This document shows positions 20,042-62,771 of a stretch of 64,000 nucleotides of DNA, in pieces. Origin of the DNA: Candidatus Uhrbacteria bacterium (GTDB taxonomy: Bacteria > Patescibacteriota > Patescibacteriia > UBA9934); NCBI GenBank assembly GCA_943359525.1, contig CALRHV010000001.1, positions 82,195 to 146,194 on the forward strand. Direction: 5' to 3'. Each line of letters opens with the position of its first letter. Position 1 is the stretch's first letter. Below the pieces are notes generated by a model that had not been told where the DNA came from, did no database searches, and saw only the letters and a program-made list of their open reading frames with translations. Position numbers and translations under genes: made by a program.

Positions 20042-20094
20042 AAGATACTAAAAACTCTCGATTCCCGCAATATTTTGAGTAAAATCTCCACAAT

Positions 20095-20137: not shown

Positions 20138-20140
20138 TGT

Positions 20141-20848
20141 TCAGTTTACCTGCGCAGCACGACACGCATCTTCCAGCGCCGCGAGCGCCACAAGGACGAG
20201 AAGGATCCGGTCGATCGACTGCAGATTGTGACCATGTGCCTCCCATCCTTCGTTGTTGTCACGCGGACGGTCAATATCTGCAACCCCGAAGCATGCGCAG
20301 TTGATGCCAACCGACATGTGCAGTGTGCCGGAATATTCCTCCACCGACCGCGAACTGATGGCCGCAGAATCTCCACACATCTGACGTTCCGCTCGTATCA
20401 CCGCACTGGTGACATCTCGGAATACGTCGGCTCGTACCGCGCGGATGAACCTCGCGAATCGCCCAGACGCAGCGACGGTGATGTCGGCCACACCGTATCG
20501 CAACACCAAGGCGTCAATCCACAACAGTTGGCCGCTTGTGTCGTCTTGCAGCTCAGAAAGATCCAAACCCCGAAACGCATCGACGGCGACGCGCAAGGTT
20601 GCAAGGGCGAGCGTCGTCTTTTTCCATTCCTGCGAGCCGATGCGTGCCACGGGAATCCGCAACACCACATGACTCTCTCGACGTTCCAGTTCGTTTTCGC
20701 GGAACTCGATTCCGCCACACGTCACCGCATCAATGAGCGCCCACGTGCGCAACGTCCACGTCACCAGAACCGCGTGTCCGTCCGCCACCAACGACAACGT
20801 CGAGGCAAACGGAGGCTTCGCCTCTTTCATGCACGGTTGAAAAACCAC
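20141..20848 (-). CDS. hypothetical protein (GC-rich island)
   Basis: 235-aa ORF; the antisense ORF 20036..20872 (+) is Arg-rich and looks spurious. Confidence 0.4.
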   Translation of the reverse strand: MVFQPCMKEAKPPFASTLSLVADGHAVLVTWTLRTWALIDAVTCGGIEFRENELERRESHVVLRIPVARIGSQEWKKTTLALATLRVAVDAFRGLDLSELQDDTSGQLLWIDALVLRYGVADITVAASGRFARFIRAVRADVFRDVTSAVIRAERQMCGDSAAISSRSVEEYSGTLHMSVGINCACFGVADIDRPRDNNEGWEAHGHNLQSIDRILLVLVALAALEDACRAAQVN

Positions 20849-28130: not shown

Positions 28131-28219
28131 GTCATCCCCGCGGCCTGTCCCCCGGAGGGGGAAGGCGGGGATCCATCATTCCGAACGATCTGGATCCCCG
28201 CCTACGCGGGGATGACCAG
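28131..28219. repeat. composite of two GTCATCCCCGCG...GGGGATCC hairpin repeats (family i)
   Basis: GTCATCCCCGCGGCC-[CCCCCGGAGGGGG]-GGCGGGGATCC, then CTGGATCCCCGCCTACGCGGGGATGACCAG. Confidence 0.8.
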
Positions 28220-29124: not shown

Positions 29125-31953
29125 CTATTTCCCACAACACTTCTTAAACTTCTTTCCACTTCCGCAATGACATGGTTCGTTTGGTCGAGGTTTTTTGGAG
29201 GAATCGCTCTGGATCCCCGCCTGTGCGGGGATGACTGAGCCGGATGGGATGACGGAGTCTAAAGGAGCAACGGCAGGATTTGATTCTGCCTTCTCCGCCG
29301 GCACATCGATCACCGTTGTTCCGCCACTGGATTGCTGCGATAAAAACTGCACCGCGTTGCGCATGAGTTGAGGAGCGGTTTCCATGATGTGCTTTGCGGC
29401 GAGATGTTGGTCGATGATTTTGAAGAGGTTGTACGAAACTTCGCGGCCGAGTTCGGAACGCATCGTGTTGTAGAGGCGATACGATTCGCGCTTGTATTCA
29501 ACAAGAGGATCACGCTGGGCGTAACCTTGCAACCCGATGGTACGGCGCAAGTAGGTCATGTCGTCCAAGTGCTGCATCCACAGCGTGTCGTTGGCGCGCA
29601 ACAAAATATTACGCTCAAGCGCCATAAGGTGTTTTGCATCACCAAACTTTTCAATAGCACCATCGTATGCACGACGAATTGCGCCGTTGACGATCTCGAT
29701 GACGTGGCTGCGTTGATACGCAAGATTTTCTTTGTCGATCGAAAGCGTCGAAAGTTCTTCACGAATCGCAGTCGATTCCCCGTCCTCGAGTTTCACGATC
29801 GTGCTGAGGCTTTCAACAATTTCTTGCGGATCCCAATCTGGCTTGCCCGCCTCGTCTTCTACGAAATCCTTCGGCACGTCGGCTTCCGCCTTGCTCGTGT
29901 GAAAGAACACCACACGTTCGATTTCTTTTTCAACAATTGAGTGCACGAGTTCATGCGCTTTCTCCTCATTCTTCATGACCTCTTTGCGTTCGTTGTACAC
30001 GGCAGTGCGATGCTTATTCAGCACGTCGTCGTATTCCAACACGTGTTTACGTGTGTCGAAGTGATGACCTTCCACACGCTGCTGCGATTTCTCAAGCGCC
30101 TTTGTGACCATCTTGCTTTCGATTGGTGTTGCATCGTCAATACCGAGTTTGTCCATCATACCTTTCACACGATCGCTTCCGAAGATACGCATCAAGTCGT
30201 CGTCGAGTGACACAAAGAACTGCGTGCTACCAGGATCACCTTGGCGACCAGCGCGTCCACGGAGCTGATTGTCGATGCGACGTGATTCGTGGCGTTCGGT
30301 GCCGATCACGTGCAAACCACCGAGCTTCTTTACCTCGTCCGCCATTGCCGCATCCACTGGGTTTCCACCAAGCAAAATGTCCACACCACGCCCAGCCATG
30401 TTTGTGGCAAGTGTTACCGCGCCACGTCGTCCAGCCTGTGCGATAATTTCGCCTTCACGTTCGTGGTTCTTTGCGTTGAGTGTGTTGTGAATAACGCCAG
30501 CCGCAGTAAGAAACTTTGAGAGCGCTTCGTTCTTGTCGATCGACACGGTTCCGATGAGGACTGGCTGACCGATCTCGTTCAAACGCTTCACTTCTTCAAC
30601 AACCGCCATCCACTTTCCCATTTCATTCTTGTAAATGCGATCTGGTAAATCCTTACGACGCGCTTCGTGATTGGTTGGAATAGTGACAACGTCGAGTTTA
30701 TAAATCTTCGCGAATTCCTCGGCTTCCGTGCTCGCCGTTCCGGTCATACCAGAAAGCTTCTCGTACATGCGGAAATAATTCTGGAACGTAATCGTTGCGA
30801 GCGTCTTGCTCTCGCGCTGAATTTTCACACCTTCCTTTGCCTCAATCGCTTGGTGCAAACCCTCCGAATATCGACGGCCTTCCATGATGCGACCAGTGAA
30901 TTCATCAACAATCAATACTTCGCCAGTGCGAACGACGTAGTCACGATCGATCTTAAACAACGAGTGTGCTTTCAATGCCTGCTCGGCGTGATGAACCATC
31001 GCAAGTCCTTCTTCGTAAATATTTTTCACGTTGAGTAAGCGCTCCAACTTTTGCAAGCCGTTTTCCGTGAACGTTGAAACGCGCATCTTCTCGTCGATAT
31101 TAAAATCTTCGCCCTCAACACAATTCCTGATGACGTCGGCGAATCGATAATACAGATCTGTCGATTCTTGCGCCGCAGCAGAAATAATCAACGGTGTACG
31201 TGCTTCGTCGATGAGAATTGAGTCGACCTCGTCCACAATAGCGTAATGCAAACCGCGCTGCACAACGTCCTCGGCACGACTCGCCATGTTGTCGCGTAAG
31301 TAATCGAAACCGAATTCATTGTTCGTACCGTACGTAATGTCGGCAGCATACGCTTGAGATCGGCTCACTGGACGCAACGAATCGGATGCGACGTGGAAAC
31401 CAGCAACAGTCTCCGCGCCTTCTGCTGGTGTCTCCACCTTAAAATCTGCGTCGTAAATATATCCACTTTCGTGCTGAATACACGCGACGGTTAAACCAAG
31501 CGACGCAAACACACGGCCCATCCACACAGAGTCGCGCTTTGCCAAATAGTCGTTCACCGTCACAAGGTGAACACCTTTTCCGGTGAGTGCGTTGAGATAC
31601 GTCGGCGCAGTTGCCGTGAGCGTCTTTCCCTCACCGGTTCGCATTTCCGCGATTGCTCCACGATGCAACGAAAGTCCGCCCATCATTTGCACATCAAAAT
31701 GACGTTGACCGAGTACGCGCTTACTCGCTTCACGAACAACAGCAAACGCCTCGTGCGCCATAGAATCAAGCGTCTCCCCGTTCGCGAGCCTTTCGCGGAA
31801 CGTCTGCGTCTTTGCTTTCAGCTCTTCTGCAGACAACGCTTTCAGTCCTTCCTCGAGTGCTGCAATTTTTTCAGCATCCTTCTTAAGATTCTTAACAACT
31901 TTTGCGTTTGGATCACCGAAAATCGTGGAAAGAGAGAAGGCCATAGATGGCAA
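29125..31953 (-). CDS. secA: preprotein translocase ATPase SecA; its C-terminal linker carries an in-frame insertion of a family (i) repeat
   Basis: 942 aa; DEAD-like motor, PPXD, HSD/HWD domains and a C-terminal zinc motif CHCGSGKKFKKCC; residues SVIPSGSVIPAQAGIQ are encoded by the repeat at 29209..29253. Confidence 0.95.
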   Translation of the reverse strand: MPSMAFSLSTIFGDPNAKVVKNLKKDAEKIAALEEGLKALSAEELKAKTQTFRERLANGETLDSMAHEAFAVVREASKRVLGQRHFDVQMMGGLSLHRGAIAEMRTGEGKTLTATAPTYLNALTGKGVHLVTVNDYLAKRDSVWMGRVFASLGLTVACIQHESGYIYDADFKVETPAEGAETVAGFHVASDSLRPVSRSQAYAADITYGTNNEFGFDYLRDNMASRAEDVVQRGLHYAIVDEVDSILIDEARTPLIISAAAQESTDLYYRFADVIRNCVEGEDFNIDEKMRVSTFTENGLQKLERLLNVKNIYEEGLAMVHHAEQALKAHSLFKIDRDYVVRTGEVLIVDEFTGRIMEGRRYSEGLHQAIEAKEGVKIQRESKTLATITFQNYFRMYEKLSGMTGTASTEAEEFAKIYKLDVVTIPTNHEARRKDLPDRIYKNEMGKWMAVVEEVKRLNEIGQPVLIGTVSIDKNEALSKFLTAAGVIHNTLNAKNHEREGEIIAQAGRRGAVTLATNMAGRGVDILLGGNPVDAAMADEVKKLGGLHVIGTERHESRRIDNQLRGRAGRQGDPGSTQFFVSLDDDLMRIFGSDRVKGMMDKLGIDDATPIESKMVTKALEKSQQRVEGHHFDTRKHVLEYDDVLNKHRTAVYNERKEVMKNEEKAHELVHSIVEKEIERVVFFHTSKAEADVPKDFVEDEAGKPDWDPQEIVESLSTIVKLEDGESTAIREELSTLSIDKENLAYQRSHVIEIVNGAIRRAYDGAIEKFGDAKHLMALERNILLRANDTLWMQHLDDMTYLRRTIGLQGYAQRDPLVEYKRESYRLYNTMRSELGREVSYNLFKIIDQHLAAKHIMETAPQLMRNAVQFLSQQSSGGTTVIDVPAEKAESNPAVAPLDSVIPSGSVIPAQAGIQSDSSKKPRPNEPCHCGSGKKFKKCCGK
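29209..29253. repeat. family (i) hairpin repeat inside the secA coding sequence
   Basis: CTGGATCCCCGCCTGTGCGGGGATGAC plus TGAGCCGGATGGGATGAC; the secA frame reads through it as VIPAQAGIQ. Confidence 0.85.
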
Positions 31954-32232: not shown

Positions 32233-32637
32233 CTATGGCTTCGCTGATCGACCCCCTCTATCTCCCCCTTGAAAAGGGGGAGGACATGAGGCTGCAATCT
32301 GAAGAAGAACGCCGTCCAAATTTCTCATCACATCATTATTCGTGAATCGAAGGATTCGAAAATCAAGACCGATTAAATATGCAGTGCGTTCTGCATCGTA
32401 AACCAACCCTTCTCGAGTAAAATGAGAATCTCCATCAACCTCAATCACTATACGATGCATCGGCGAACAGAAATCAACAATAAAAGATCCAATTCCAAAT
32501 TGACGGCGAAACTTTATCCCAAGAGTGCCGTTTCGTAATTCTTTCCAAAGTATTCTTTCTGGTATTGTCATGCTTCCGCGAAGATTTCTCCGACGTTCAA
32601 TGCTCCACGCAGGATTAAATAGCTTCGTCATACACAC
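32233..32637 (-). CDS. DUF559 (Vsr-like endonuclease fold) domain protein in an AT-rich insert
   Basis: ERILWKELRN...FRRQ..IG.FIVDF......VIEVDG.SH layout; the body is AT-rich relative to the flanks; the C-terminus runs into a G5 hairpin repeat. Confidence 0.6.
   Translation of the reverse strand: MCMTKLFNPAWSIERRRNLRGSMTIPERILWKELRNGTLGIKFRRQFGIGSFIVDFCSPMHRIVIEVDGDSHFTREGLVYDAERTAYLIGLDFRILRFTNNDVMRNLDGVLLQIAASCPPPFQGGDRGGRSAKP
32252..32283. repeat. G5/C5 hairpin repeat (family iii)
   Basis: CCCCCTCTATCTCCCCCTTGAAAAGGGGGAGG. Confidence 0.8.
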
Positions 32638-32640
32638 CCC

Positions 32641-32738
32641 CTCCTTACTCCCCCTTGAAAAGGGGGAGGGACATAAACTAAACCGAACGTAGCCCCACTT
32701 ATTCCTCTCCCCCTTTTCAAGGGGGAGTCGGAGGGGGT
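32641..32738. repeat. two further family (iii) hairpins in tandem
   Basis: CTCCCCCTTGAAAAGGGGGAGGG ... CTCCCCCTTTTCAAGGGGGAG ... GGAGGGGGTC. Confidence 0.8.
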
Positions 32739-38397: not shown

Positions 38398-38448
38398 CGT
38401 CTAACCTACGAGAGATGGTTACTGGATCCCCGCCTTCGCGGGGATGAC
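38398..38448. repeat. chimeric family (ii)/(i) hairpin repeat between convergent folD and uvrA
   Basis: CTAACCTACGAGAGAT (a family ii arm fragment) followed by CTGGATCCCCGCCTTCGCGGGGATGACTGA. Confidence 0.8.
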
Positions 38449-38457
38449 TGATAAAAA

Positions 38458-40983: not shown

Positions 40984-43095
40984 TTACGTTCTCCGAGATC
41001 GTTTTTCCTTCTTTCCCTTCTTCATTCCCAACAGCTCCTTGCTCAACAACGCGATCTCGTCTCGCAGAATCGCCGCAGTCTCGAACAACAGGTTCGCCGA
41101 CGCTTTGTCCATTTCAATCTCCTTCTCACGAATTGCTTCTTCAATCTCAACCGGGGTCGCGCTGATTTCGATGTTCAGAATCTTCGAGGTGTCGGCTTCG
41201 AAGTTTCTGTCGAGTTCTGCGCGAATGTCTTTAATCGTTTTAATGATCGTCTGCGGCGTGATGCTGTGTTTGACGTTGTGTGCAATTTGGATGTTGCGAC
41301 GACGTTCGGTTTCTTTCAGCGCCCTGTCGAGCGATCCCGTCATCTTGTCGGCATACAGAACGACCAAGCCGTTGATGTTTCGCGCAGCACGACCGATGGT
41401 TTGAATGAGCGAGGTTTCCGATCGCAGGAAGCCTTCCTTGTCCGCGTCGAGCACGCCGATGAGTGACACCTCAGGAAGATCGAGCCCCTCACGAAGCAAG
41501 TTCACTCCGACGACAACGTCGTATGTTCCCTTTCGCAACTCAGTGAGAATCGTAATCCGATCGAGCGTTTCGACATCGGAATGGAGATACGCCACTTTCA
41601 TGCCGCCTTCTTTCAGGTACGCTGTTAAATCCTCGGCCATCTTTTTTGTGAGCGTGGTGACGAGTGCGCGTTCGCCTTTGGTGACACGATCTTTGATGCG
41701 TTCGGTGATGTCGGAGACTTGGCCGGGGAAGCCCCCTCCAACTCCCCCATAAATGGGGGAGAGGTTATCACCGAGCGGCCCCCCTCCATTTATGGAGGGG
41801 CTGGGGGAGGCGAGCGTCGCCGTCACCGGCAATACCAATGTCTCTGGGTCGACTAAACCGGTTGGACGAATGATTTGCTCAACAATCTGCTCCGATGTTT
41901 CTTTTTCGACGACTCCCGGTGTTGCAGATACGTACACGGTTTGACCGATCGTTTTATCGAACTCTTGGTACGTAAGCGGTCGATTATCCTTCGCCGATGG
42001 GAGACGGAAACCGAAATCAACGAGCGTTTGTTTTCGCGCCTGATCACCAGCGAACATTCCGCCAATCTGTGGGAGCGTGACGTGTGATTCGTCGATGATG
42101 GTAAGAAAATCTTTCGGAAAGTATGACAGCAACGTGTGTGCCGGTTCACCAACACGACGTCCATCAAAGTGACGTGAATAGTTTTCAATACCACTGCAAT
42201 ACCCAACGTTCCGAATCATCTCGATATCGTATCGCGTTCGTCGCATGAGGCGCTCCGATTCTAAAAGCTTCCCTTCTTTCTCGAACTCCCTCAAACGATC
42301 CGCGAGCTCGTTCTCGATGTCGCGAATTGCCCGTTCACGCTCGGCGCTATCGGACATGAAATGCTTCGCCGGAAAGAACCACGCGTCCTCGTTCTGTGTG
42401 ATGATCTTTCGCGTAACCTTATTCAACGAAAAAATCTCACGCACCGCGTTTCCTTCAATCACAATCCGATACACGATTTCATCACTCGGCGGCATGACTT
42501 CGATAACGTCGCCATTTGCGCGAAAGTGGCCACGAGTAAGATCGGCATTCGTGCGTTCGTACTGCATCGAAACAAGCTGACGAAGAAAGTCTGCACGATC
42601 GATCCGGTCGCCGACTCGCATATGAAGCACCTCGCGTTTGTATGCTTCCGGCGAACCTAATCCATAAATACAGCTCACCGAGGCAACGACGATCACATCG
42701 CGACGGGATAAAAGAGATTGCGTTGCGGCATGGCGAAGGCGATCGATCTCCTCGTTGATCTGCGCGTCCTTCTCAATATACGTGTCTGTTCGCGGCATGT
42801 ACGCCTCTGGCTGGTAGTAGTCGTAATACGAAACGAAGTAGGAAACGGCATTGTCAGGAAAAAACTCGCGGAACTCGGAACAGAGCTGCGCGGCGAGGGT
42901 TTTGTTGTGCGCAATCACCAACGTTGGCTTCTGCACATTTTGAATAACATTCGCCATGGTAAACGTCTTTCCCGAACCCGTCACCCCAAGCAACGTCTGC
43001 CGATGCAAGCCGTCGTTGATGCCGTCCGTCAGATCGGCAATGGCTTTCGGCTGATCACCGGCTGGAGAATATTTTGAGACGAGATTGAAGGGCAT
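40984..43095 (-). CDS. uvrB: excinuclease ABC subunit B with an in-frame insertion of a G5-hairpin repeat
   Basis: Walker A GVTGSGKT, DESH, helicase C domain; the stretch LASPSPSINGGGPLGDNLSPIYGGVGGGFPG after RPTG is encoded by the repeat at 41731..41810; start taken at MPFNL (43095). Confidence 0.9.
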   Translation of the reverse strand: MPFNLVSKYSPAGDQPKAIADLTDGINDGLHRQTLLGVTGSGKTFTMANVIQNVQKPTLVIAHNKTLAAQLCSEFREFFPDNAVSYFVSYYDYYQPEAYMPRTDTYIEKDAQINEEIDRLRHAATQSLLSRRDVIVVASVSCIYGLGSPEAYKREVLHMRVGDRIDRADFLRQLVSMQYERTNADLTRGHFRANGDVIEVMPPSDEIVYRIVIEGNAVREIFSLNKVTRKIITQNEDAWFFPAKHFMSDSAERERAIRDIENELADRLREFEKEGKLLESERLMRRTRYDIEMIRNVGYCSGIENYSRHFDGRRVGEPAHTLLSYFPKDFLTIIDESHVTLPQIGGMFAGDQARKQTLVDFGFRLPSAKDNRPLTYQEFDKTIGQTVYVSATPGVVEKETSEQIVEQIIRPTGLVDPETLVLPVTATLASPSPSINGGGPLGDNLSPIYGGVGGGFPGQVSDITERIKDRVTKGERALVTTLTKKMAEDLTAYLKEGGMKVAYLHSDVETLDRITILTELRKGTYDVVVGVNLLREGLDLPEVSLIGVLDADKEGFLRSETSLIQTIGRAARNINGLVVLYADKMTGSLDRALKETERRRNIQIAHNVKHSITPQTIIKTIKDIRAELDRNFEADTSKILNIEISATPVEIEEAIREKEIEMDKASANLLFETAAILRDEIALLSKELLGMKKGKKEKRSRRT
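41731..41810. repeat. family (iii) G5/C5 hairpin repeat inside the uvrB coding sequence
   Basis: CCCCCTCCAACTCCCCCATAAATGGGGGAGAGG...CCCCTCCATTTATGGAGGGGCTGGGGGAGG: two palindromic hairpins. Confidence 0.85.
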
Positions 43096-45526: not shown

Positions 45527-45553
45527 TTGGATCCCCGCTTTCGCGAGGATGAC
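45527..45553. repeat. family (i) hairpin repeat (slightly degenerate)
   Basis: TTGGATCCCCGCTTTCGCGAGGATGAC. Confidence 0.7.
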
Positions 45554-50544: not shown

Positions 50545-51711
50545 TTACCAACGACCAGGACCGTTCGGGTTGTATCCGTTCGCAATTTCGAGGCCATCGG
50601 GATAGCTGTCGTTGTCGGAGTCGGAGTCGAAACGGTTAGTCCAGTGGATGGTCATTTCAGCGTAGTCGGTGAGACCGTCGTGATCGGAGTCGAGCTTGCC
50701 TACGCCGTTCGGATTGTAGCCGTTGATGACTTCGGTGTAGTCCGGGTATCCATCACCGTCCGTATCGGAACTGAAGGGATTCGAGTGCCAAACTGATTCC
50801 TCGTCGGTATTCGTTAAACCATCGCCATCGTTGTCCATAGCCAACATTGCATCGCCAAGACGTTCAACAGTGGCTTCGTCGGCATTCGACATGTGGTAAT
50901 TCTTGATATCGATTGCATTGGCTGGCACTGCAATATTCACCGGTGCGTTGAAGCTATTGAAGAGCACCGAAACGCCAACCGTGGTGTACGACGTAGCGCT
51001 CTGTTGCACGTTTACGTTGAGCGTGAACATTGCAGGAAGCATACTTACCGTATCAACCCAGAATGAACCGCCAATGGTGACGTGTTCTGCAAGGTATGTA
51101 CGAGCCGCGTCTTCTTCAGACGCTGGAATTAGCTTCTTTTCAACAAGATACTCAACCAAGCGGTCCGTGTTTACCGTGTAGGCATAGCGGACGGTTGGCT
51201 TCGAATTGATGAAGCCGACGGTTTCGAGGCGATAGCTTACGACTCCGCGATTGAACATGTCTTGAAGATACGACTGCATTTGCGCAACGGCTTCTTCAGT
51301 TTCTCCCGCAGTTGGATAGTTGCTCGAACTGGCGAACTTCGTGAAATACCAAATGTTCTCGTCTTGCGAGAAGTATGCGGTGTCCTGTGTGAGGATCACC
51401 GATCCATTCGATGCGTTCGACGCACCGTTTTGATCGGTCACCGAGCCAGCAAAGTTTAACCGGCCATTCTGCGTCGTACTTGAAACACCATCAAGGTCCA
51501 CGTGAACCTTTACTGGCTGATTCATGCTAGACGTGTATGTTTCCACATCAACGTCTACGCTGAAATCCACGGACTTCGCGGTGGCGACGTTTTTGAGAAG
51601 CGTAGAAGTCGAATCGCTACTCAAGACGGTGGCGGCAGACGCAAACTGCGCCGGCAGCAATACCACACTCAAAACAAGGATCGAGACACACTTTTTGATA
51701 AGGTTTTTCAT
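50545..51711 (-). CDS. secreted protein with C-terminal thrombospondin type-3-like calcium-binding Asp repeats
   Basis: Signal peptide MKNLIKKCVSILVLSVVLLPAQFASA; C-terminal DGDGLTNTDEE, DTDGDGYPDYTE, DSDHDGLTDYAE, DSDSDNDSYPDGLE repeats. Confidence 0.7.
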   Translation of the reverse strand: MKNLIKKCVSILVLSVVLLPAQFASAATVLSSDSTSTLLKNVATAKSVDFSVDVDVETYTSSMNQPVKVHVDLDGVSSTTQNGRLNFAGSVTDQNGASNASNGSVILTQDTAYFSQDENIWYFTKFASSSNYPTAGETEEAVAQMQSYLQDMFNRGVVSYRLETVGFINSKPTVRYAYTVNTDRLVEYLVEKKLIPASEEDAARTYLAEHVTIGGSFWVDTVSMLPAMFTLNVNVQQSATSYTTVGVSVLFNSFNAPVNIAVPANAIDIKNYHMSNADEATVERLGDAMLAMDNDGDGLTNTDEESVWHSNPFSSDTDGDGYPDYTEVINGYNPNGVGKLDSDHDGLTDYAEMTIHWTNRFDSDSDNDSYPDGLEIANGYNPNGPGRW

Positions 51712-51865
51712 GGGATTTGGCCAATAAATTAACCGGATAGTATAGCAAAAAAACGGCCAAAAGTCAAGGAATTTGGCTAAAGTAAGCAAAGATGTAAACC
51801 GGTTGTGGCGAACGAACCCCCGAGCCACCAGTCCGAGGTAGTGCGCCAGAAAATGATGCCCTCGT

Positions 51866-52130
51866 ATTTTGGGGTTTTAAAAAGGGGCGATAGAACGTGT
51901 TGTGATGCTGTAATCAATGAAAAGCGAAATCGATTTCAAAATGCGTGACCGGCGATCGGAGACGGCTTCATCGCGAGCCGAACGGATCGTCAATATGAGC
52001 CAGTGCTTCCTTAACGCGAAACTTTCGCATTAGCAAAACACCCTGTTTGAAATCGAATGCCCCCGCTCTCGACAATCGTGTTTGTGATCATCACTCCCGC
52101 CACATCCATCCAAGATCAGTTCAGGCCTTC
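51866..52130. repeat. copy 2 of the conserved ~270-nt duplicated non-coding element, abutting the topIB stop codon
   Basis: See copy 1 (10788..11080). Confidence 0.7.
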
Positions 52131-53458: not shown

Positions 53459-56278
53459 ATGGTAAAGCTTCGTAACGCACTTCTTGGCGCAGCAGTCGGT
53501 CTTGGTATTGGTGCAGCAAGCATCGAACACGCAGAGGCAAAAGACTTCGCCACCGCCCAGTCGCCAGACCCAACGTTTCCCTTTGAGCGCCTTGCGATTG
53601 GCGGCACACCGGAAGACATCGATGAGCTCCTCACGCACATCAACGACTGGGCGTACAAAGATAGAGCAGGCGACGTGGCGGTAGAACTTGCAAAAAAATA
53701 TCCGTACGACGTCATAAAACACAATAAGGATTTTCTTGATCTTGGCGTTCCGTGGACAGACGAGGTTTTGCGATCCGCACTACATTCGGCCACCGACGAA
53801 TCTCGGAACTACGACATTTTCCGATATTTTGACGTAGGCGATCCAAGAACCGCTCGCCTTTTTGAGGAATCCATGGACACCGTGTCTAGGCCACTGACTC
53901 ACTATTATTGGAGGACCTCGTTGGGATTATCGCAACAGCAACACGATGCGTATTCTGAACTCATGCGCAAGGCAATTTCCGTAGAGGCCGCTCAGCGTCC
54001 CATGCAAATGTTCCGCACTGCATACAATGACCAAGATCAATTCGCGAAGTTCGTTCCAAACCGTACCAAACGGAAGGCACTCATGGAACAGATGATTGTC
54101 AACATCATTGAATCCGGTGACGACGAAGATCTTAAGGAAATGGCTCGCTACGCACAAGGATCTTCTGATATCCGAATACTCATCGCTCAGCACTATGGTT
54201 GGGAGCGGTTTCTTGAGCAGTGCGCCGAACGCATACCTGGAGCCGTTCTCCGCAGCTTCCGTGATTGGAGAAGTCCGTTCTTTGTGTTTTGGGCTGAAAA
54301 GAAACGCATGGAGGTGTATCGCAATGCCACAGAACGCGATCCGGGCGCGCTCATTTGGGAATGGAGAAATGAATCGAAATATCACGAACTCCAACAACAG
54401 AATCATCGCGACGAAATGAAGCGCCTCGCTGGCGATGCGTATACAAAGGTCATTACAGAACACCTCGATGAGTTTCATGTGCAGCATCTCCTCACGCCAG
54501 AAGTGATGCGAGAAATTCCTGCGATCGATACTGCGCTTCGCTCCTCGGCAGAAAAGAATCCCGCGCAGCTTCTTGACGCTCTGGATGTAGACGTTTTAGA
54601 AATCGATGCAACGCCATACCTTGAAATCGCCGCACGAAGCGCCATCGCGAAGCGTACATGGAAGAACGCTCGCCCTGTTCGTCACGAGGAATCGAAGATC
54701 ACCGCTTATGGCGATGAGCGCAGATCATATTCTCGATATGGCGACGATCTTTACACCGTGAATCAATTCGGCCGCCTTCCAGATCATGAGGAACTCGAGG
54801 TGGCGTGGTTCAAGGCGGCGATGACGGATATTCCAGGCGAAACACTTGGACTGTATTTTCGCGAACCGTGGACCAGCAAGGCGCTCGACGAGAATCTTCC
54901 TGGGAACCTCATGTACGCACAAGAAATGAATCCTGCTGCCATCGATACAACCCTCGACATCCCTACGCTTACCTTCGATGAGCGACATCTTCTCCTTGGT
55001 TCTCGAGCGAAGGATGATTTTGCGGAAGCAACAAGAGACGCAATAACGATTCTGCAACTCGATAAAGGAACCAGTTCAAAGCTCGCGTATCAGCTGTTGT
55101 GGATCCTTGAAGAAGCTCAGCCGTACGAATTTTCCGCGTGGGTGAAGGAACTCGAAAAAACACCGGCGCCGAATTCACTTCTGGACGACTGGAAAAAGGC
55201 TGTCACCAAAGAACAATGGGACGGACTCGTGAAACACGCTGATAGTATTGAGAAGAGCAAAGCATACGAAACGCTCGCAACGTCCACGATTGGCACTGGT
55301 TTTCGATTCAATACCGCAACGCTCGAAGAGCTGCTTGGAATGAATTATCACCATCGGCTGCGCACCACCGTTGCGTCGAGCAATTCCTATGGAGCATATG
55401 AAGGAAAAAACTTTATTACTGTTCCGATGCTTGCGTTTGAAACGATTGCCACATCAAAGGCCTTTGAACGCTACATCGATGCGCACGCAAACGATAAGCT
55501 CTCGTTCGTTACCCTCTGCTCAACCGTGCAAGCAACGTGGCGTAGATTACGCGATTTGCATATGGATCCATCGCCGGCGAATATCGAGCGCGCGCTCAAT
55601 GATGTAGAGCAGCAATGGGAACATGTAAAAAATGTAGAAGTCTTTGGACCGCACACCGACGTCATTACCATTGCGCACGAAGAAGCGCGATTTAGCAACA
55701 CGGAATTTATCGATCAGTTGGTGCTCGGCCATGGCGGGAATGCGAAACAGGTGCTGTTTCAAGGAAAGGGCGCAAAAGACGAATCCGCAATTCTCACGGC
55801 GATCAGCACAAAAAAGACCAAGTCCATCACCATCGCCTTTCATGGTCACGGGCTTGAACAAGGCCTGTATCTCGACGACCGAACTCCGATCGAACCAACG
55901 GAACTCGGCGCCGCGCTCATTGCCTCTGACAACATTCAAAACACTCGTCTCATCCTCCACTCGTGCCACGCATACGACTTCGTGGATCAACTGCTCAGAT
56001 ATTTGCGCGAGAAACATATTGACACTACCGGTTTCGTCGTCGTCACGGGCGCAAACAAAAACGCACTTGGATTCGGCACTGGCAATAACACAAATCCAGT
56101 TTTAGACAGCCGGTATCTTAGCGCTATCCACACGCAAAATGCCGGGAGACCAATTACGGTCGACGCATTCCGCAGAGCCGAAAACATTGATTGGATTCAC
56201 CAAGACCCAAGCATCACCGTCGGCCTGCCACTTGAAAGCGGATGGATGACGGGAATTGAAGTTGCGGAAGCTGAATAA
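53459..56278 (+). CDS. large secreted helical-repeat protein with a C-terminal CHAT/caspase-like domain
   Basis: Signal peptide MVKLRNALLGAAVGLGIGAASIEHAEA; about 700 aa of helical repeats; C-terminal ITIAFHGHG (His-Gly) and LILHSCHA (hydrophobic block then Cys) spaced as in clan-CD peptidases. Confidence 0.5.
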   Translation: MVKLRNALLGAAVGLGIGAASIEHAEAKDFATAQSPDPTFPFERLAIGGTPEDIDELLTHINDWAYKDRAGDVAVELAKKYPYDVIKHNKDFLDLGVPWTDEVLRSALHSATDESRNYDIFRYFDVGDPRTARLFEESMDTVSRPLTHYYWRTSLGLSQQQHDAYSELMRKAISVEAAQRPMQMFRTAYNDQDQFAKFVPNRTKRKALMEQMIVNIIESGDDEDLKEMARYAQGSSDIRILIAQHYGWERFLEQCAERIPGAVLRSFRDWRSPFFVFWAEKKRMEVYRNATERDPGALIWEWRNESKYHELQQQNHRDEMKRLAGDAYTKVITEHLDEFHVQHLLTPEVMREIPAIDTALRSSAEKNPAQLLDALDVDVLEIDATPYLEIAARSAIAKRTWKNARPVRHEESKITAYGDERRSYSRYGDDLYTVNQFGRLPDHEELEVAWFKAAMTDIPGETLGLYFREPWTSKALDENLPGNLMYAQEMNPAAIDTTLDIPTLTFDERHLLLGSRAKDDFAEATRDAITILQLDKGTSSKLAYQLLWILEEAQPYEFSAWVKELEKTPAPNSLLDDWKKAVTKEQWDGLVKHADSIEKSKAYETLATSTIGTGFRFNTATLEELLGMNYHHRLRTTVASSNSYGAYEGKNFITVPMLAFETIATSKAFERYIDAHANDKLSFVTLCSTVQATWRRLRDLHMDPSPANIERALNDVEQQWEHVKNVEVFGPHTDVITIAHEEARFSNTEFIDQLVLGHGGNAKQVLFQGKGAKDESAILTAISTKKTKSITIAFHGHGLEQGLYLDDRTPIEPTELGAALIASDNIQNTRLILHSCHAYDFVDQLLRYLREKHIDTTGFVVVTGANKNALGFGTGNNTNPVLDSRYLSAIHTQNAGRPITVDAFRRAENIDWIHQDPSITVGLPLESGWMTGIEVAEAE

Positions 56279-56337
56279 GCCTGATATCGTACAGCCTCAG
56301 ACATGGCAGCCTGCTTTATGGCTCCAAAATTTCATAT

Positions 56338-56475
56338 ATGGACGACACCAACGTAGTACCAGCAGCAGACGAAACCGCAGCTCCAGTTGCAGCGCCAGAA
56401 GAAACAACAGCTCCTGCTACAGACATGCTAACAGACGACGTCGCTCCAGCAGCAGACGAAGAAGTCACCGCGTAA
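56338..56475 (+). CDS. 46-aa acidic Pro/Ala/Asp/Glu/Thr-rich micro-ORF (below the ORF-track length cutoff)
   Basis: MDDTNVVPAADETAAPVAAPEETTAPATDMLTDDVAPAADEEVTA; starts 60 nt after the CHAT-like gene and is followed by a hairpin/T-tract. Confidence 0.35.
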   Translation: MDDTNVVPAADETAAPVAAPEETTAPATDMLTDDVAPAADEEVTA

Positions 56476-56481
56476 TTTCCG

Positions 56482-56520
56482 CGGTTCGCAAAAACCCTAG
56501 CGAGCAATCGCTGGGGTTTT
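56482..56520 (+). terminator. terminator-like hairpin with T-tract
   Basis: AAAAACCCTAGCGAGCAATCGCTGGGGTTTTTGATTT. Confidence 0.5.
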
Positions 56521-56546
56521 TGATTTCATGCGATACAATACGACAT

Positions 56547-57161
56547 ATGGCATCGTGGACCACCGAAGAACAAAAGATTCTCAAAAAACTCTCAACGCCC
56601 GCCAAGATTCAAGATTTCTTGAACGGCCTTCGATTCCGGATTATCGGCGGGAACGAAACCTGTCATTCCCCGCGACTCGTCCTTCGCCATCGGGAGGCAC
56701 AGTGCATGGAAGGGGCGATGTTCGCGGCGGCTGTGCTTCGATTCCATGGTTACCGACCGCTCATTATCGACCTCACATCGACCGCGCAGGATCAAGATCA
56801 CGTCATCTCTGTGTTTCAGATTGGTGGCTTTTGGGGAGCAATTTCGAAGACGAATCACGGGGTTCTGCGATATCGTGAGCCCGTGTATCGATCAGTTCGT
56901 GAACTCGTCATGAGCTACTTTCACGAATACTTCCTTCAATCGAATCGAAAGAAAACACTACGAGGATTCTCGAAACCGGTCGATCTCTCACGATTCGATC
57001 GGAGAGAATGGGAAACGAGCGAAGAACCGATTTGGTATATTCCCGAATATCTCTTAACAATTCCCCACTCGCCAATTCTGAATCGATCGCAAATTGCCCG
57101 GCTCCGCATCGCCGACCCAATCGAGGCACAGATGACGGAAATCGTGGAATGGCGTACGTAA
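56547..57161 (+). CDS. transglutaminase-like (Cys-His-Asp papain-like) superfamily protein
   Basis: Real start MASWTTEEQ; the upstream 97 codons of the ORF are Arg/Ser-rich antisense-like. Core AQCMEGAMFAAAVLRFHGY ... DHVISVF. Confidence 0.45.
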   Translation: MASWTTEEQKILKKLSTPAKIQDFLNGLRFRIIGGNETCHSPRLVLRHREAQCMEGAMFAAAVLRFHGYRPLIIDLTSTAQDQDHVISVFQIGGFWGAISKTNHGVLRYREPVYRSVRELVMSYFHEYFLQSNRKKTLRGFSKPVDLSRFDRREWETSEEPIWYIPEYLLTIPHSPILNRSQIARLRIADPIEAQMTEIVEWRT

Positions 57162-57439
57162 ATCGTTTCAGTCATGCTGAGCGTTAGCGAAGCATCTCTC
57201 GCAGGGTATCTGGATTACCTACGGGAGATTCTTCACTTCGTTCAGAATGACGAACAGAATTCGAAATGCTATAGTTTTCCCATATGGAATGTCCAAAATG
57301 TCATCGTGCAACAACGGGGATCAAAACCGATACCACAAAAGGAAGGCACGGCGAGGTGTATGTTCGCGAAGCATCGCGATGTCCGCGATGCGATGTGTGG
57401 GTGACGGTCGAGACACCGAAAGAAGCCAAGGAATAACAA

Positions 57440-58929: not shown

Positions 58930-59370
58930 TTACTCCCACCACTTGCACAACGGCATTTCGGCAATGCAATACAGCTCCTTCTTCTTGTTTGGGAACTTTT
59001 TCAACAGACGAAGGCTCAACCAGTGATCGATGGAGTGACGGCCCGCACCAGAGGTCAAAAGCAATACCGCGGTGCCGAAGATCAGGATCCGAGCGGAAAA
59101 ATCGACCGCAAGGACATCGGGAATACTGGACGAGAGCAAGGGTAATGCCATTCCGATAATGACCAATGCTCCCGCGAGTCGAGTGAAAAATCCCTCGACC
59201 GAAAGAACACCAGCAATGAACATGACTGCGACTAAAAATGAAATCGACTCAATGTGATTGATGGATTGCGCAATAAGTACGCCGCCGAATGCAATGCGAA
59301 CCGGAATAATTCCCCACGTTGGTCGGGTGCCAAAGAAATATGTCCAAAACTTTGCAGCAGATTGTGTCAT
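58930..59370 (-). CDS. DoxX-family membrane protein
   Basis: 146 aa; four TM helices. Confidence 0.5.
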   Translation of the reverse strand: MTQSAAKFWTYFFGTRPTWGIIPVRIAFGGVLIAQSINHIESISFLVAVMFIAGVLSVEGFFTRLAGALVIIGMALPLLSSSIPDVLAVDFSARILIFGTAVLLLTSGAGRHSIDHWLSLRLLKKFPNKKKELYCIAEMPLCKWWE

Positions 59371-60773
59371 AGTGGAATTAATCCGGGAATCGCTTCACTC
59401 ATCGTGGGGTACGCGTGGATCATCGATTGAACGGTGTCGATGGCAATGCCGGCGTACATCGCCAACGCAAGCTCGTGAATCACCTCCCCCGAATGATCGC
59501 CGAGCATTGAGGCACCAAGGATGAGGCTCGATTTCTTATCGACGAATACCTTGAGCAACCCGATCCGCTCACTCTCGATCACTGCTCGACCGAGGGCTCC
59601 GACGGGAAATTTCCAGACGGAGAACAATTTTTTCTGCATAACAAGTTCATCGGCCATTGCGCCGACCGAAGCGAGTTCTGGAGAGACGAAAACAACGCGT
59701 GGAACAACAGCGAGATCGACATGAGTGAATTTCTTTTTTCCTTGTGCGAACAATGCTGCGTTCTTTCCAGCAATCGTCCCCTCATGATGTGCGGTATGCG
59801 TGTATGCCGGAAGTCCAGTAACATCACCCGCAAAAAAGATCGATCGTCCCTTTACACGCATCATTTGGTCGATGGTGACGCCGTTCGTTGCGTTACGTTT
59901 GATTCCAGCGTTCTCGAGACCGAGCAATTCGATATTCGGCGCACGACCGGATGCGATAAGCAGTTTTTCAACGCGGACTGTTTTTCGAGGATTCGATTTC
60001 GTTTGATACGTGAGACGAATCTGCCGACCAGACTTCGCTACCCCGAGGACGCGAGTGCTGGAGTGAAATGTAACGCCGCGATGCATCAGCGTTTTTGCGG
60101 CAAGCGCAGCGACCTCGGCATCTTCACGTGGAAGCAAACGATCGGCGATATCGAAAATAATAACGGGAACGCCGAGTAAGGAAAAGAACGTCGCAAATTC
60201 GCAACCAATTGGTCCGCTGCCGAGAATAGCGATTGATTCTGGTAACTCTGTGATTGATGTTGCTTCGCGCGGCGTCCAGTAATCGATAGCCTCGATTCCC
60301 GCAATCGGCGGAATTCTTGAAATCGATCCCGTGGCGATGACGAATGATTTTGCGCTGATGATGTGCGTGCCAACGCGGATGGATTCGTCGTCGATAAAAC
60401 TTGCAGCACCACGAAAGACTGTTACCTTTTCGCTCTCTAAAATCTTCTCGAGTCGTCGATTACCCGTCATCGCATTCACGACGGCATTCTTGCGTTCCAT
60501 CATCGTAGAAAGATTGAATGATAGTTGCTTCACATCGATTCCAAATCGCCCACCGTTTCGTCGGATGTCGTCGTACCGAACAGCAGCTGCAAGCATCGAC
60601 TTCGTTGGAACACACGCATAGTTTGGACATTCGCCGCCGAGTTTGTCCGCACTCACCATCGCTACGCTCGCGCCTTCCTGTCGCGCAGCAAACGCCGCGG
60701 AAAGCCCCGCAGAGCCTCCGCCAATGATGACCACATCGAATCCTGTTTTATGAGTAATCTTTTTTGCAGGCAT
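59367..60773 (-). CDS. class I pyridine nucleotide-disulfide oxidoreductase (dihydrolipoyl dehydrogenase/mercuric reductase-like)
   Basis: FAD motif VVIIGGGSAGLSAA; redox-active disulfide GGECPNYACVPTKS; NAD(P) site GSGPIGCEFA; dimerisation domain. Confidence 0.8.
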   Translation of the reverse strand: MPAKKITHKTGFDVVIIGGGSAGLSAAFAARQEGASVAMVSADKLGGECPNYACVPTKSMLAAAVRYDDIRRNGGRFGIDVKQLSFNLSTMMERKNAVVNAMTGNRRLEKILESEKVTVFRGAASFIDDESIRVGTHIISAKSFVIATGSISRIPPIAGIEAIDYWTPREATSITELPESIAILGSGPIGCEFATFFSLLGVPVIIFDIADRLLPREDAEVAALAAKTLMHRGVTFHSSTRVLGVAKSGRQIRLTYQTKSNPRKTVRVEKLLIASGRAPNIELLGLENAGIKRNATNGVTIDQMMRVKGRSIFFAGDVTGLPAYTHTAHHEGTIAGKNAALFAQGKKKFTHVDLAVVPRVVFVSPELASVGAMADELVMQKKLFSVWKFPVGALGRAVIESERIGLLKVFVDKKSSLILGASMLGDHSGEVIHELALAMYAGIAIDTVQSMIHAYPTMSEAIPGLIPL

Positions 60774-60785
60774 AATGCTATTTCC

Positions 60786-60869
60786 GTCATCCTGAACGAA
60801 GTGAAGGATCTCTCGCAGGTGATCCGGACTAACCTACGAGAGATTCTTCGCTACGCTCAGAATGACTGA
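60786..60869. repeat. family (ii) long imperfect inverted-repeat hairpin, copy B
   Basis: GTCATCCTGAACGAAGTGAAGGATCTCTCGCAGG-15 nt-CCTACGAGAGATTCTTCGCTACGCTCAGAATGACTGA. Confidence 0.85.
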
Positions 60870-60894
60870 GTTGAAACTCTGCGTAAAATAATTC

Positions 60895-62241
60895 CTAAAC
60901 CACCAGCGGCAAATTCCGCCATACCTTTTCGTCGCCACGCAATAACGACTCCACTCGGTACGCGCCATGCGTTGGTGCATTCGTAAATCCACTCCACGCC
61001 ATGCGTGCCAATGCGCCACTATCGATCCAATCGAACAGCCACTCATTCATGTACTGCGGCGCAAGGCCATCAGCGCCACCACCAACGTACGTTAACCATG
61101 CGCGATTGAAATCCTCCTGACTTCCAACAGTCGGCGCCATAATAATCGGAATCGCTAAGCCGGTGTAGAACGAAAGCTCCGACGGTTTGGTCCAAAGAAT
61201 ATCTGTCTTGCGCATCAGCGTCGCGAATGCCGAAAAATAATCCGGACGATTGTCTTCGAAAAGGATCGTCACCTTCCCCGCGCGCTTTGCACTCACCAAT
61301 CCGTCCAGCCGAATCTCGCGTTCAAAAAATTCATTCACTTCCGGTCGCGTTCCTGCAACAAGGTTTACGATGATTCGTCCTGCACGGATATCGGAAGCCA
61401 ATGACCGGAGAGCTAAAGCAACAAGCTCGCGCTGCGTTCCCGCACCGCCAACAGCAAACGTGATCGATGGCGTGGTTGGCTTGATTGCACAAAATGGCTT
61501 TCCAAATGTTGCGTCCAGAAGCGCATGCGCTTTTGCAACGAAATTTCCACGCGGATCAAGGTTGCACATGCGACGCTGCAAATCGGCTCGCACATATTCT
61601 GGCGAGTGCGCGCCGCCAATCGTTTCGTACGGTAACGGAAAACCCGTCAGCGTAATATTTTTTTCTTTGACGCCGTACAACTTTAAACGCTCAACAACGC
61701 GACCGGTCGGCGCCAAGTATTTGATTCTGCTTTTCTTTGGATTCAGCGGCACCCAAGCACGAGCAATGTCTGCATCGCAAAGAACAATGTAGATGTCTTC
61801 TGGATAATCGAGTTCCTCCGCGGCAAAGGCTGGGGTAAAGAATGTTGAAACGATTGGAAGTGGATTTTCCTTGAATCGCTTGATCAGGTCATGGCACATC
61901 CCCTGACTATGAATAAGCGCGTATGTTTGTCTAACTTGTAAACTCGGTTTCGATAAATCGCGCTTGGGATAGAACTCCGGAATACGCTGCATCTTATCCA
62001 TTAAACCGAACGTTGCCGATCCCAGAATTGGCACGTTCTTGAACCGCGACACAAATTCGTAGAAGCTTTTTCCCGTTTCCCAAAGTCTCCGTTCATGAGC
62101 CGGAATTCCCGGATAATCATTCGCAACCGTTACCTGTTTACCAGGAGCAAGGTGCCGCAACGCAAAAGCGGCCCGTTCATGGCCATAGCCCATATTGACG
62201 GCAACCACGTGCGCCAATGCTTTCCCCCTTTTTTCCTCCAT
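60895..62241 (-). CDS. GT-B fold glycosyltransferase (MGDG synthase/UgtP/MurG-like, GT28-like)
   Basis: N-terminal HVVAVNMGYGHERAAFAL motif; bracketed by direct copies of the family (ii) hairpin. Confidence 0.45.
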   Translation of the reverse strand: MEEKRGKALAHVVAVNMGYGHERAAFALRHLAPGKQVTVANDYPGIPAHERRLWETGKSFYEFVSRFKNVPILGSATFGLMDKMQRIPEFYPKRDLSKPSLQVRQTYALIHSQGMCHDLIKRFKENPLPIVSTFFTPAFAAEELDYPEDIYIVLCDADIARAWVPLNPKKSRIKYLAPTGRVVERLKLYGVKEKNITLTGFPLPYETIGGAHSPEYVRADLQRRMCNLDPRGNFVAKAHALLDATFGKPFCAIKPTTPSITFAVGGAGTQRELVALALRSLASDIRAGRIIVNLVAGTRPEVNEFFEREIRLDGLVSAKRAGKVTILFEDNRPDYFSAFATLMRKTDILWTKPSELSFYTGLAIPIIMAPTVGSQEDFNRAWLTYVGGGADGLAPQYMNEWLFDWIDSGALARMAWSGFTNAPTHGAYRVESLLRGDEKVWRNLPLVV

Positions 62242-62250
62242 ACTTTTGCA

Positions 62251-62331
62251 GTCATCCTGAACGGAGTGAAGGATCTCTCGCAGGTCATCCGAATACCCTA
62301 CGGAGATTCTTCGCTTCGCTCAGAATGACTG
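62251..62331. repeat. family (ii) inverted-repeat hairpin, copy C, directly 5' of the GT-B gene start
   Basis: GTCATCCTGAACGGAGTGAAGGATCTCTCGCAGG-...-CCTACGGAGATTCTTCGCTTCGCTCAGAATGACTGA. Confidence 0.85.
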
Positions 62332-62402
62332 AACGTGAATTGCGTCAATTCATTTAGGAGAAGTATAGCAAGAAAACTTTTACACGATTCACTTTCCGCA
62401 GC

Positions 62403-62514
62403 GTCATCCCCGCGCAGGCGGGGATCCAGAGTGTTCTGAATGAAGATCGTGTCAGTATTCATCCCAAAAATTCTTCAATGTATTCTGGATCCCCGCCTGC
62501 GCGGGGATGACCAG
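62403..62514. repeat. inverted pair of family (i) repeats with a 55-nt spacer
   Basis: GTCATCCCCGCGCAGGCGGGGATCCAG at 62403..62429 and CTGGATCCCCGCCTGCGCGGGGATGACCAG at 62485..62514. Confidence 0.85.
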
Positions 62515-62771
62515 AGGGGAAGAAATTCCTACTACAAATCGAAGAGGCTGCCCGCGTGGAGCAGCCTCTCGTGGATCCGTGACGGGGATCAGTCGGCCGC
62601 GTTTGCGGCGTACTCGGCGTCGCGAGCTGCGAGCTCGGCTTCGGTCATCGGGAAGGAAAGGACGCGACCGCATATTCACGCTCGTTTTACGCGAAGTCCT
62701 GTCCACCACTGAGATTTGCCAAATTTATGGGGTTCAGGTAGCATTCCCGCATTCGAAACCCCAATACGCTT

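Follow-up and report, generated by a model that had tools for sequence, protein, structure and literature searches.

Why should a single bacterial gene be framed on both sides by the same long hairpin? The question is raised by a 64,000-nucleotide stretch of DNA from Candidatus Uhrbacteria bacterium (Patescibacteriota; NCBI GenBank assembly GCA_943359525.1, contig CALRHV010000001.1, positions 82,195 to 146,194 of the forward strand), referred to here as the window, in which a DUF6938 gene lies at 60895-62241 on the minus strand between two copies, B and C, of an inverted-repeat element. The two copies are probably insertions of an interspersed intergenic repeat that belongs to the class of the Ssn-related motif (SRM) and carries a variant of that motif, and not a device specific to the gene that they enclose.

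Copies B and C and their 27-nucleotide arm

The preliminary description of this locus placed a hairpin copy on either side of the gene and described each copy as an imperfect inverted repeat of ~34 bp, and both statements were confirmed. On the plus strand, the 34-mer GTCATCCTGAACGAAGTGAAGGATCTCTCGCAGG is found at 60786-60819 with 0 mismatches and at 62251-62284 with 1, and it was found in 0 of 100 dinucleotide shuffles. At both sites it is followed, after ~13 nt, by its own imperfect reverse complement, which has 6/34 substitutions in copy B (60833-60866) and carries an indel in copy C (62296-62329). The resulting elements measure 81 nt (copy B, 60786-60866) and 79 nt (copy C, 62251-62329) and stand in direct orientation around the gene. 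They are 1465 bp apart and 88% identical over ~93 nt, with a longest identical run of 21 nt. Long hairpins are predicted to form on either strand (RNA dG -45 to -50 kcal/mol, z -6.9 to -7.8), the mRNA-strand folds of the two copies having a dG of -47 to -50 kcal/mol.

Copy C was earlier thought to overlap the start region of the gene and to place the translation start inside a strong hairpin. Instead, it ends 9 nt from the DUF6938 ATG (62241), on the upstream side and without coding overlap, and forms part of the 5' leader. Similarly, copy B lies in the gap between the DUF6938 stop (60895) and the ATG (60773) of the gene that follows on the minus strand (59367-60773), at a distance of 12 nt from this ATG on its upstream side. 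The AUGs downstream of both hairpins, that of DUF6938 included, stay unpaired in the predicted mRNA folds.

Each copy can be resolved into two inverted arms of 27 nt, termed family (ii) here, with the sequence GTCATYCTGARCGNAGYGAAGRATC. The arms are located at 60786-60812 (+) and 60840-60866 (-) in copy B and at 62251-62277 (+) and 62303-62329 (-) in copy C, so that both copies are doublets. When one genome per GTDB species was scanned with the arm query GTCATYCTGARCGNAGYGAAGRATCTC, at least 120 stretches were matched. The matches listed span well over a dozen phyla, among them Saccharibacteria, Chloroflexota, Acidobacteriota, Nitrospirota, Bacteroidota (including Pedobacter isolates), Omnitrophota, Planctomycetota, Verrucomicrobiota, Bacillota, several Pseudomonadota and others.

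A set of 240 family (ii) arms, taken from the window and from other loci in many phyla, was used to examine covariation. Nearly all arm positions are >95% conserved in this set, with G1, T2 and C3 present in 237-239 and C25 in 234 of the 240 arms. Positions 6 and 22 covary (TA 127, CG 97 and GC 5, against 8 non-Watson-Crick combinations, namely TG 5 and CA 3), as do positions 11 and 17 (GC 187 and AT 42, against 7 non-Watson-Crick combinations, GT 5 and AC 2), and loop position 14 is free to vary. The hairpin described by these positions begins with 5'-GTC and continues with the pairs A4-T24, T5-A23, Y6-R22, C7-G21 and T8-A20, a tandem G.A/A.G (9-10 with 18-19), the inner pairs R11-Y17 and C12-G16 and a G-N-A triloop, and is followed by a C. 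The left arms of copies B and C have the stem ATCCT/AGGAT with AC/GT, their right arms have ATTCT/AGAAT with GC/GC, and one arm of a further copy at 57171-57251 has ATGCT/AGCAT; all three Watson-Crick variants are thus present in the window. Among the 240 arms there are 64 inverted pairs (+ then -), and the two arms carry the same 6/22 variant in just 34 of these 64. Judged by this pattern, the conserved unit is the 27-nt arm and not the long hairpin, which would be a by-product of placing two arms in inverted order.

The arm motif and the Ssn nucleases

An oriented hairpin motif of similar build has been described together with its nuclease in Neisseria. SsnA is a 94-aa stand-alone GIY-YIG nuclease (family cd10448) that binds the Neisseria NTS/SRM and cleaves just upstream of the motif, only in single-stranded DNA (ssDNA) and only on the GTCAT strand (Chenal et al., Nat Commun 2025, PMC11893778). 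Within the NTS consensus, CGTCATTCCCGCGMAVGCGGGAATCYRG, cleavage depends on the GTC that precedes the palindrome and binding on the C that follows it, and strand-specific binding and cleavage by the cognate Ssn were demonstrated only for Neisseria and Wolbachia pairs, the latter genus being named as rich in such repeats (PMC11893778). Furthermore, ssn genes are typically flanked by the motif, and the SsnA of N. meningitidis cuts the integration of NTS-bearing transforming DNA by ~five-fold; mobility of the repeats is put forward in that study as a hypothesis only (PMC11893778).

The window contains 14 arms at 9 sites, all of them between long open reading frames (ORFs), and includes three family (ii) doublets and two doublets of a sister family (i), to which 7 of the arms belong. 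A generic scan for GTCAT plus a hairpin gave 17 matches in the window; shuffled sequences gave 4.9 on average and at most 10. Family (i), CGTCATCCCCGCGCAGGCGGGGATCCAG, is the NTS consensus apart from one compensatory pair, T>C / A>G. Three of its arms, at 29209, 38422 and 62402, conform to the published SRM pattern, HGTCWYN(0-2)YYVSBRHN(0-5)WNVSBRGN(0-2)RNCYNB, a search aid derived from 29 genomes. Family (ii) likewise has a conserved GTC flank, an imperfect palindrome hairpin and a C just after it, and its near-invariant positions (G1-C3 and C25) are the positions that are critical in NTS.

The genes that accompany family (ii) arms elsewhere point in the same direction. Clustering of the ORFs within 1.5 kb of arms at ~120 loci returned one small recurrent neighbour family, GIY-YIG proteins of ~95 aa, and three GIY-YIG ORFs tightly flanked by family (ii) arms, all scoring as Pfam GIY-YIG, are found among the genome matches listed. 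Eighty metagenomic loci encoding relatives (56-74% identity) of these arm-flanked proteins were fetched, and 53/80 have a family (ii) arm <=300 bp from the GIY-YIG gene, compared with a match to the published SRM pattern in 3/80. In these loci, the stretches within 300 bp of the gene have 2.49 arms per kb, compared with 0.05 per kb beyond that distance, a 50-fold difference. The commonest two-sided layout has the upstream arm in gene orientation and the downstream arm inverted, which is a doublet with an ORF in its loop. A family (ii)-flanked protein is 46% identical (E 2e-16) to a 94-aa GIY-YIG ORF of N. gonorrhoeae that lies among 16 NTS in 3.3 kb (locus L212) and that is, by its length and context, taken to be SsnA. 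A homologue on a Planktothrix plasmid, 66% identical, has flanking arms with a further compensated pair, T12-A16.

On the strength of these alignments and gene neighbourhoods, family (ii) can be regarded as an SRM stem variant with its own subclade of SsnA-like nucleases. The doublet looks like an ORF-less derivative, comparable to a miniature inverted-repeat transposable element (MITE) or a REPIN, of units composed of an arm, an ssn gene and a second arm, since it has the same outward-facing arm layout.

The SsnA-like genes themselves were seen in varied surroundings. The one on the Planktothrix agardhii plasmid (NZ_LR882964.1, 17350-20622) is accompanied by three family (ii)-type arms in a defence island, between a gene of an MmeI-type restriction-modification system and the DISARM gene drmA, with short tandem copies of TTCTCCTGTGCTGTCATTCTGAG downstream. 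Identical SsnA-like proteins are encoded on 17-38 contigs each (P0124, P0197, P0214 and P0238), and ~70%-identical relatives of these four occur in Deltaproteobacteria, Chloroflexota, Nitrospirae and Caldilineales. This suggests that the genes may be multi-copy, horizontally spread, or both.

Insertion footprints and competing explanations

Relatives do carry the gene without the repeats. The operon to which DUF6938 belongs is kept in four related lineages (L126, L131, L001 and L004), and these loci contain 0 arms of either family; the DUF6938 protein is 94% identical to that of the window in L126, 89% in L131 and L001/L002, and 87% in L004/L005. At the site of copy B, the spacer between DUF6938 and the downstream oxidoreductase gene is 2 nt in L126 and L004, an overlap in L131 and an arm-free 75 nt in L001, compared with 121 nt in the window (insert ~60774-60894). 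At the site of copy C, an extended -10 box (TGnTATACT) stands 10-11 nt before the ATG in all four relatives, which suggests that their DUF6938 mRNA is near-leaderless. The corresponding box of the window, TGCTATACT at 62362-62370 on the minus strand, is 120 nt before the ATG; its role as a promoter is presumed, and a consensus promoter scan did not call it. The extra 110 nt (~62242-62351) consist of copy C with 22 nt and 9 nt of flank. Similarly, a third full family (ii) doublet (57171-57251, with arms at 57171-57197 (+) and 57225-57251 (-)) is contained in a 114-nt insert (57153-57266) that takes the place of 12-17 nt in L001/L004 and provides the stop codon of ORF 56256-57161. The parsimonious reading is that three independent insertions of ~110-120 nt took place in the lineage of the window, and they would be fairly recent, as they arose after this lineage had separated from a relative that is 94% identical in aa and 82% in nt.

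The same strain is represented by four contigs from other samples or assemblies (GCA_943356565.1, a metagenome-assembled genome (MAG); ERZ27280264; ERZ27280328; ERR3719152). Over up to 5.7 kb they match the window at 100% identity, including the repeats, and two of the four break off at repeats. Same-strain short-read contigs (L129, L130) end ~50-250 bp from hairpin elements, and the L126 contig ends 47 bp beyond the DUF6938 stop, which corresponds to the copy B site of the window. Moreover, gene calling gave DUF6938 proteins with over-long N-termini (P0002 and P0003, 477-499 aa) or genes antisense to L28. Repeats and compact spacers degrade assemblies and annotation of the candidate phyla radiation (CPR), and the hairpins explain spurious small ORFs, over-extended N-termini and contig breaks in them.

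Several observations weigh against the assignment of copies B and C to the SRM class. Swapping the palindrome while retaining the hairpin abolishes the activity of the Neisseria SsnA (PMC11893778), and cleavage of family (ii) would therefore depend on a different Ssn. Family (ii) arms fail the published SRM pattern, both in the window and in the 80 GIY-YIG loci, which argues for a variant motif and not against membership of the class. A hidden Markov model built from 117 Ssn-like proteins and run over all six reading frames of the 64-kb window found no Ssn-like ORF (best E 0.76). Among the matches listed, a single arm-flanked GIY-YIG contig is labelled Patescibacteria (L006, a 10-kb Saccharibacteria MAG contig), and a query with its GIY-YIG protein returned relatives from many phyla, none of the best 120 being labelled Patescibacteria. 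In addition, the family (ii) arm is predicted to fold at -1.6 to -1.9 kcal/mol (z ~0) with nearest-neighbour DNA parameters, so that this standard energy model lends no support and the arm structure rests on covariation and the analogy with NTS. The base before GTCAT is mostly A/C in the window and T in 186/240 arms elsewhere. The three filled sites lack target-site duplications and have flanks that are loosely alike (GAATT, ACGYA, TTCA), and the inserts are 30-40 nt longer than the doublets. As for earlier reports, Patescibacteria are unmentioned in the main text of PMC11893778; literature searches with the family (ii) arm and its variants as text returned unrelated primer matches only, and those on CPR and palindromic repeats returned nothing relevant.

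If copies B and C are SRM-class insertions, a cognate Ssn whose gene lies elsewhere in the genome or has since been lost would recognise the arms in ssDNA arising during replication or after uptake in transformation. Each doublet has a GTCAT arm at the 5' end of both strands, and such a nuclease would consequently cut either strand on either side of DUF6938. Cutting could lower the replacement of the DUF6938 segment by transformation, as in Neisseria, an outcome that would be near the opposite of gene excision. The gene would be bracketed because insertions are tolerated only in tiny intergenic gaps. Effects on expression are likely to be a consequence of the elements and not the reason for them: the DUF6938 leader would become longer and structured (~115 nt), the operon mRNA would contain a hairpin without a U-tract, and a regulatory side-effect of copy C is possible.

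A more speculative extension can be offered tentatively, although we would not bet on it. SRM doublets might be active REPIN-like non-autonomous elements moved via ssDNA by Ssn, with family (ii) as a horizontally spreading pair ranging from Patescibacteria to Acidobacteriota, Chloroflexota, Bacteroidota and Cyanobacteria; the three filled and empty sites would then be transposition footprints, and the cluster at the envelope operon might shield or diversify genes for host interaction. If so, hairpin-targeting mobile DNA of a new class would have Ssn as its enzyme, and the four elements clustered at the envelope glycan/lipid operon of this probable episymbiont would have a counterpart in the NTS clusters near surface genes of pathogenic Neisseria. 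Apart from this extension, the locus points to an SRM stem variant that is missed by the published pattern yet common across many phyla with its own SsnA-like subclade, and both motif families occur in a genome of Patescibacteria, a lineage in which the system was previously undescribed. It also offers three clean comparisons of filled and empty sites, at which doublets with 30-40 nt of flank appear to have been inserted recently, and it raises the question of whether Ssn sites near envelope genes restrict recombination in organisms that are thought to depend on DNA uptake.

Inert relics of a past invasion would look similar in several respects. The elements would then be decaying in a reduced genome with no cognate nuclease left and would have incidental effects only, as might be expected from the small genomes of Patescibacteria, from a window without an ssn gene, from copies that differ by ~12-20% and from the presence of a solo arm, a degenerate arm and an arm with a loop insertion. 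This is nevertheless unlikely, as the inserts are younger than the split from the 94% aa / 82% nt relative and every family (ii) arm of the window retains Watson-Crick pairs at the covarying positions, with three pair types represented. Moreover, 4/9 repeat sites fall within 5.4 kb (57.1-62.6 kb) at one envelope operon (post hoc binomial ~0.005).

Regulation of the gene by RNA, with the hairpins kept as a translational block, an attenuator or terminator, or an mRNA stabiliser, is improbable. REP-type (repetitive extragenic palindromic) hairpins stabilise upstream mRNA in enterobacteria. Both elements here would be co-transcribed with the operon as very stable RNA folds, 9 nt (copy C) and 12 nt (copy B) before a start codon, and copy C extends a probably near-leaderless mRNA to a leader of ~115 nt. 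However, covariation keeps the arm hairpin and not the stem between the arms, the same arm is found beside unrelated genes in many phyla, and both strands fold equally well. Neither hairpin is followed by a U-tract or was called by the terminator scan, the AUGs are unpaired, and close relatives run the operon without the elements.

The preliminary description had also proposed that the directly repeated copies could drive excision or phase-variable loss, in which some cells of the population would lose the gene, and perhaps regain it, by B-C recombination. The direct orientation of the two copies, their separation of 1465 bp and their 88% identity over ~93 nt would permit this on paper, and a role as recombination substrates has been proposed for the NTS-type repeats of Neisseria (discussion of PMC11893778). 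The idea does not hold up well and is given very little credence, as the longest B-C identical run of 21 nt is short for RecA-type recombination and the same element occurs at other sites where it brackets nothing in particular. All four same-strain contigs keep the gene and both repeats, with no deletion form or B-C junction contig among them, a contig-level comparison that rare deletions could escape. In addition, the gene has >5000 homologues and stands in a conserved operon, and its loss would probably be costly.

It is hardly credible that the elements are classical REPs or REPINs mobilised by a RAYT (an IS200/IS605-like Y1 HUH transposase) and not by Ssn. Their build does resemble a REPIN, with two inverted palindromes forming a ~80-nt hairpin in multiple intergenic copies without target duplication, but the arms start with GTCAT, as NTS/SRM do, and lack a GTAG-type tetranucleotide, 53/80 GIY-YIG loci carry arms, and no transposase-like cluster was seen among the top ORF clusters at ~120 loci, a result of clustering without a Pfam Y1_Tnp scan. 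A composite transposon was rejected on the ground that no transposase lies between or beside the copies, the gene content is the same as in relatives and the operon is conserved, and an intrinsic terminator on the ground that there is no U-tract and the terminator scan called neither hairpin.

The operon, the remaining repeats and known systems

The bracketed gene encodes a protein of 448 aa whose sole Pfam match is DUF6938, and searches of NCBIfam and of PDB sequences gave no match. An AlphaFold model based on 46 homologues (pLDDT 88.2, pTM 0.88) shows two Rossmann-like domains in a GT-B arrangement. With this model, Foldseek retrieved Arabidopsis MGD1 as the top match (4wyi, E 5e-9), followed by MurG, MshA, WaaG and UDP-GlcNAc 2-epimerases. 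The earlier assignment to GT-B proteins resembling MGDG (monogalactosyldiacylglycerol) synthase is therefore upheld at the level of the predicted fold, and transferase activity is a further supposition, epimerases having the same fold. There are >5000 detectable homologues, the named ones all from Patescibacteria (Uhrbacteria, Parcubacteria, 'Patescibacteria group').

DUF6938 is the first gene of a conserved operon, in which it is followed by a pyridine nucleotide-disulfide (pyr_redox) oxidoreductase, in some cases a DoxX gene, a WecA/MraY-like Glycos_transf_4 (GT4) gene and L21, with L28 divergent upstream. The oxidoreductase (468 aa, 59367-60773, minus strand) abuts or overlaps DUF6938 in relatives and is split from it here by copy B. 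A gene for a 146-aa DoxX/DoxD-like membrane protein (58930-59370, minus) stands between the oxidoreductase and WecA-like genes in the window and also in L127-L129, and is absent from the same position in L001, L004 and L131. Upstream, the L28 gene and the nearest family (i) doublet have between them a GC-rich piece of ~130-170 bp (62530-62700), which contains a terminator-like hairpin with a T-run at ~62544-62575 (minus) and possibly an ORF of 19 codons. This piece is absent from the 85-130-bp L28/DUF6938 spacers of relatives, and the spacer therefore seems to have grown from ~90 to 530 bp via several insertions.

The family (i) doublet next to it is an inverted pair at 62403-62511, 74 nt from copy C, with NTS-like arms GTCATCCCCGCGCAGGCGGGGATCCAGA at 62403-62430 (+) and 62484-62511 (-), 53 nt apart; positions 62402-62429 match the published SRM pattern. 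The other family (i) doublet (28131-28216) has arms at 28131-28172 (+), with a loop insertion of ~19 nt, and 28194-28216 (-). Solo family (i) arms are found on the minus strand at 29213-29235 and 38426-38448, where the SRM pattern is matched at 29209-29236 and 38422-38449, and a degenerate one, GTCATCCTCGCGAAAGCGGGGATCCA, at 45528-45553 (-). The only remaining family (ii) arm, GTCATCCTGAGCACAGCGAAGGATCTC at 10674-10700 (+), has no partner arm and no long hairpin.

Other repeats of the window are separate from these two families. A third hairpin family, CTCCCCCTTGAAAAGGGGGAG, is present at 32252-32283, 32638-32669, 32706-32727 and 41732-41763, and the loop of the family (i) arm at 28131-28172 encloses a hairpin that resembles it, TCCCCCGGAGGGGGA. 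At 19221-19275 and 20087-20141 there are two copies (93% identical, 866 bp apart) of a GC-rich hairpin repeat of 55 nt, with the core ACGGCCCGGCTTCCCACGCGGGAGCCGGGCCGT and a terminator-like look. Furthermore, a non-coding paralogous pair of ~240-270 nt (10718-10991 and 51795-52070, 73-81% identical) has no ORF >=50 aa and no Rfam match at E<=1. It lies on the minus strand just upstream of the genes at 8623-10599 and 50545-51828, the latter encoding a secreted-looking repeat protein, and the solo family (ii) arm at 10674-10700 sits between the 10718-10991 copy and gene 8623-10599. The pair may be a shared leader or an undescribed structured RNA.

Several known systems can be compared with the elements described here. 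MITEs such as Correia/NEMIS, RUP and Nezha are similarly short and non-autonomous, with terminal inverted repeats, and lie near gene ends, where they alter leaders and operon junctions. They derive from insertion sequence elements with DDE transposases and make target-site duplications, in contrast to the three filled sites of the window, which show none.

Two Rfam families are also relevant, namely RF02625 (WsnRNA46, Wolbachia sRNA 46) and RF02748 (FtrB, Francisella sRNA B), both annotated as small RNAs (sRNAs) and not as DNA repeats. Their consensus sequences contain GTCAT-stem-loop-ATC arms, and WsnRNA46 is an inverted pair of such arms. The family (i) doublet (62383-62527) aligns end to end with WsnRNA46 at 39 bits and gives 23 bits with FtrB, scores below the gathering thresholds of 65 and 66 bits, respectively. 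At gathering thresholds the whole window yields two tRNAs only, and at permissive E-values the family (ii) doublets match only microRNA hairpins, by chance. What these entries represent is probably Ssn-related DNA repeats and not dedicated sRNA genes, the case for FtrB being weaker than that for WsnRNA46.

REPINs are outlined as doublets of inverted short palindromes that are mobilised by RAYTs (Bertels and Rainey 2011, PMC3116915; PMC3337134). The doublets of the window share with this system a non-coding intergenic pair, a long hairpin, presumed mobilisation in trans by a single-copy nuclease acting on ssDNA hairpins, and no target duplication, but window-type arms are tied to GIY-YIG proteins and not to a Y1 HUH transposase, and their flank is GTCAT. 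The conserved 5' flank of REPs is a GTAG-type tetranucleotide.

In the neisserial dRS3 repeats and intergenic mosaic elements (NIMEs), dRS3/NTS hairpins form inverted pairs ~50 nt apart in intergenic arrays, as seen in the N. gonorrhoeae locus L212, and the window doublets at 62403-62511 and 28131-28216 resemble such pairs. The spacers in the window are 13-53 nt long and unrelated, whereas NIMEs, to our knowledge, have specific RS spacer families and are confined to Neisseria.

Finally, the NTS/SRM repeats that are recognised by SsnA are present as hundreds of intergenic copies and form clusters around particular genes (PMC11893778). Where NTS has a GC-rich perfect palindrome, family (ii) has an AT-rich stem, a tandem G.A and a GNA triloop; its host here belongs to the Patescibacteria (CPR), and the window contains no ssn ORF. 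In common with NTS/SRM, the window's elements have an oriented motif of ~27-28 nt built as GTC, AT-stem-loop-stem-AT and C, and they occur as intergenic copies, as inverted pairs and in clusters.

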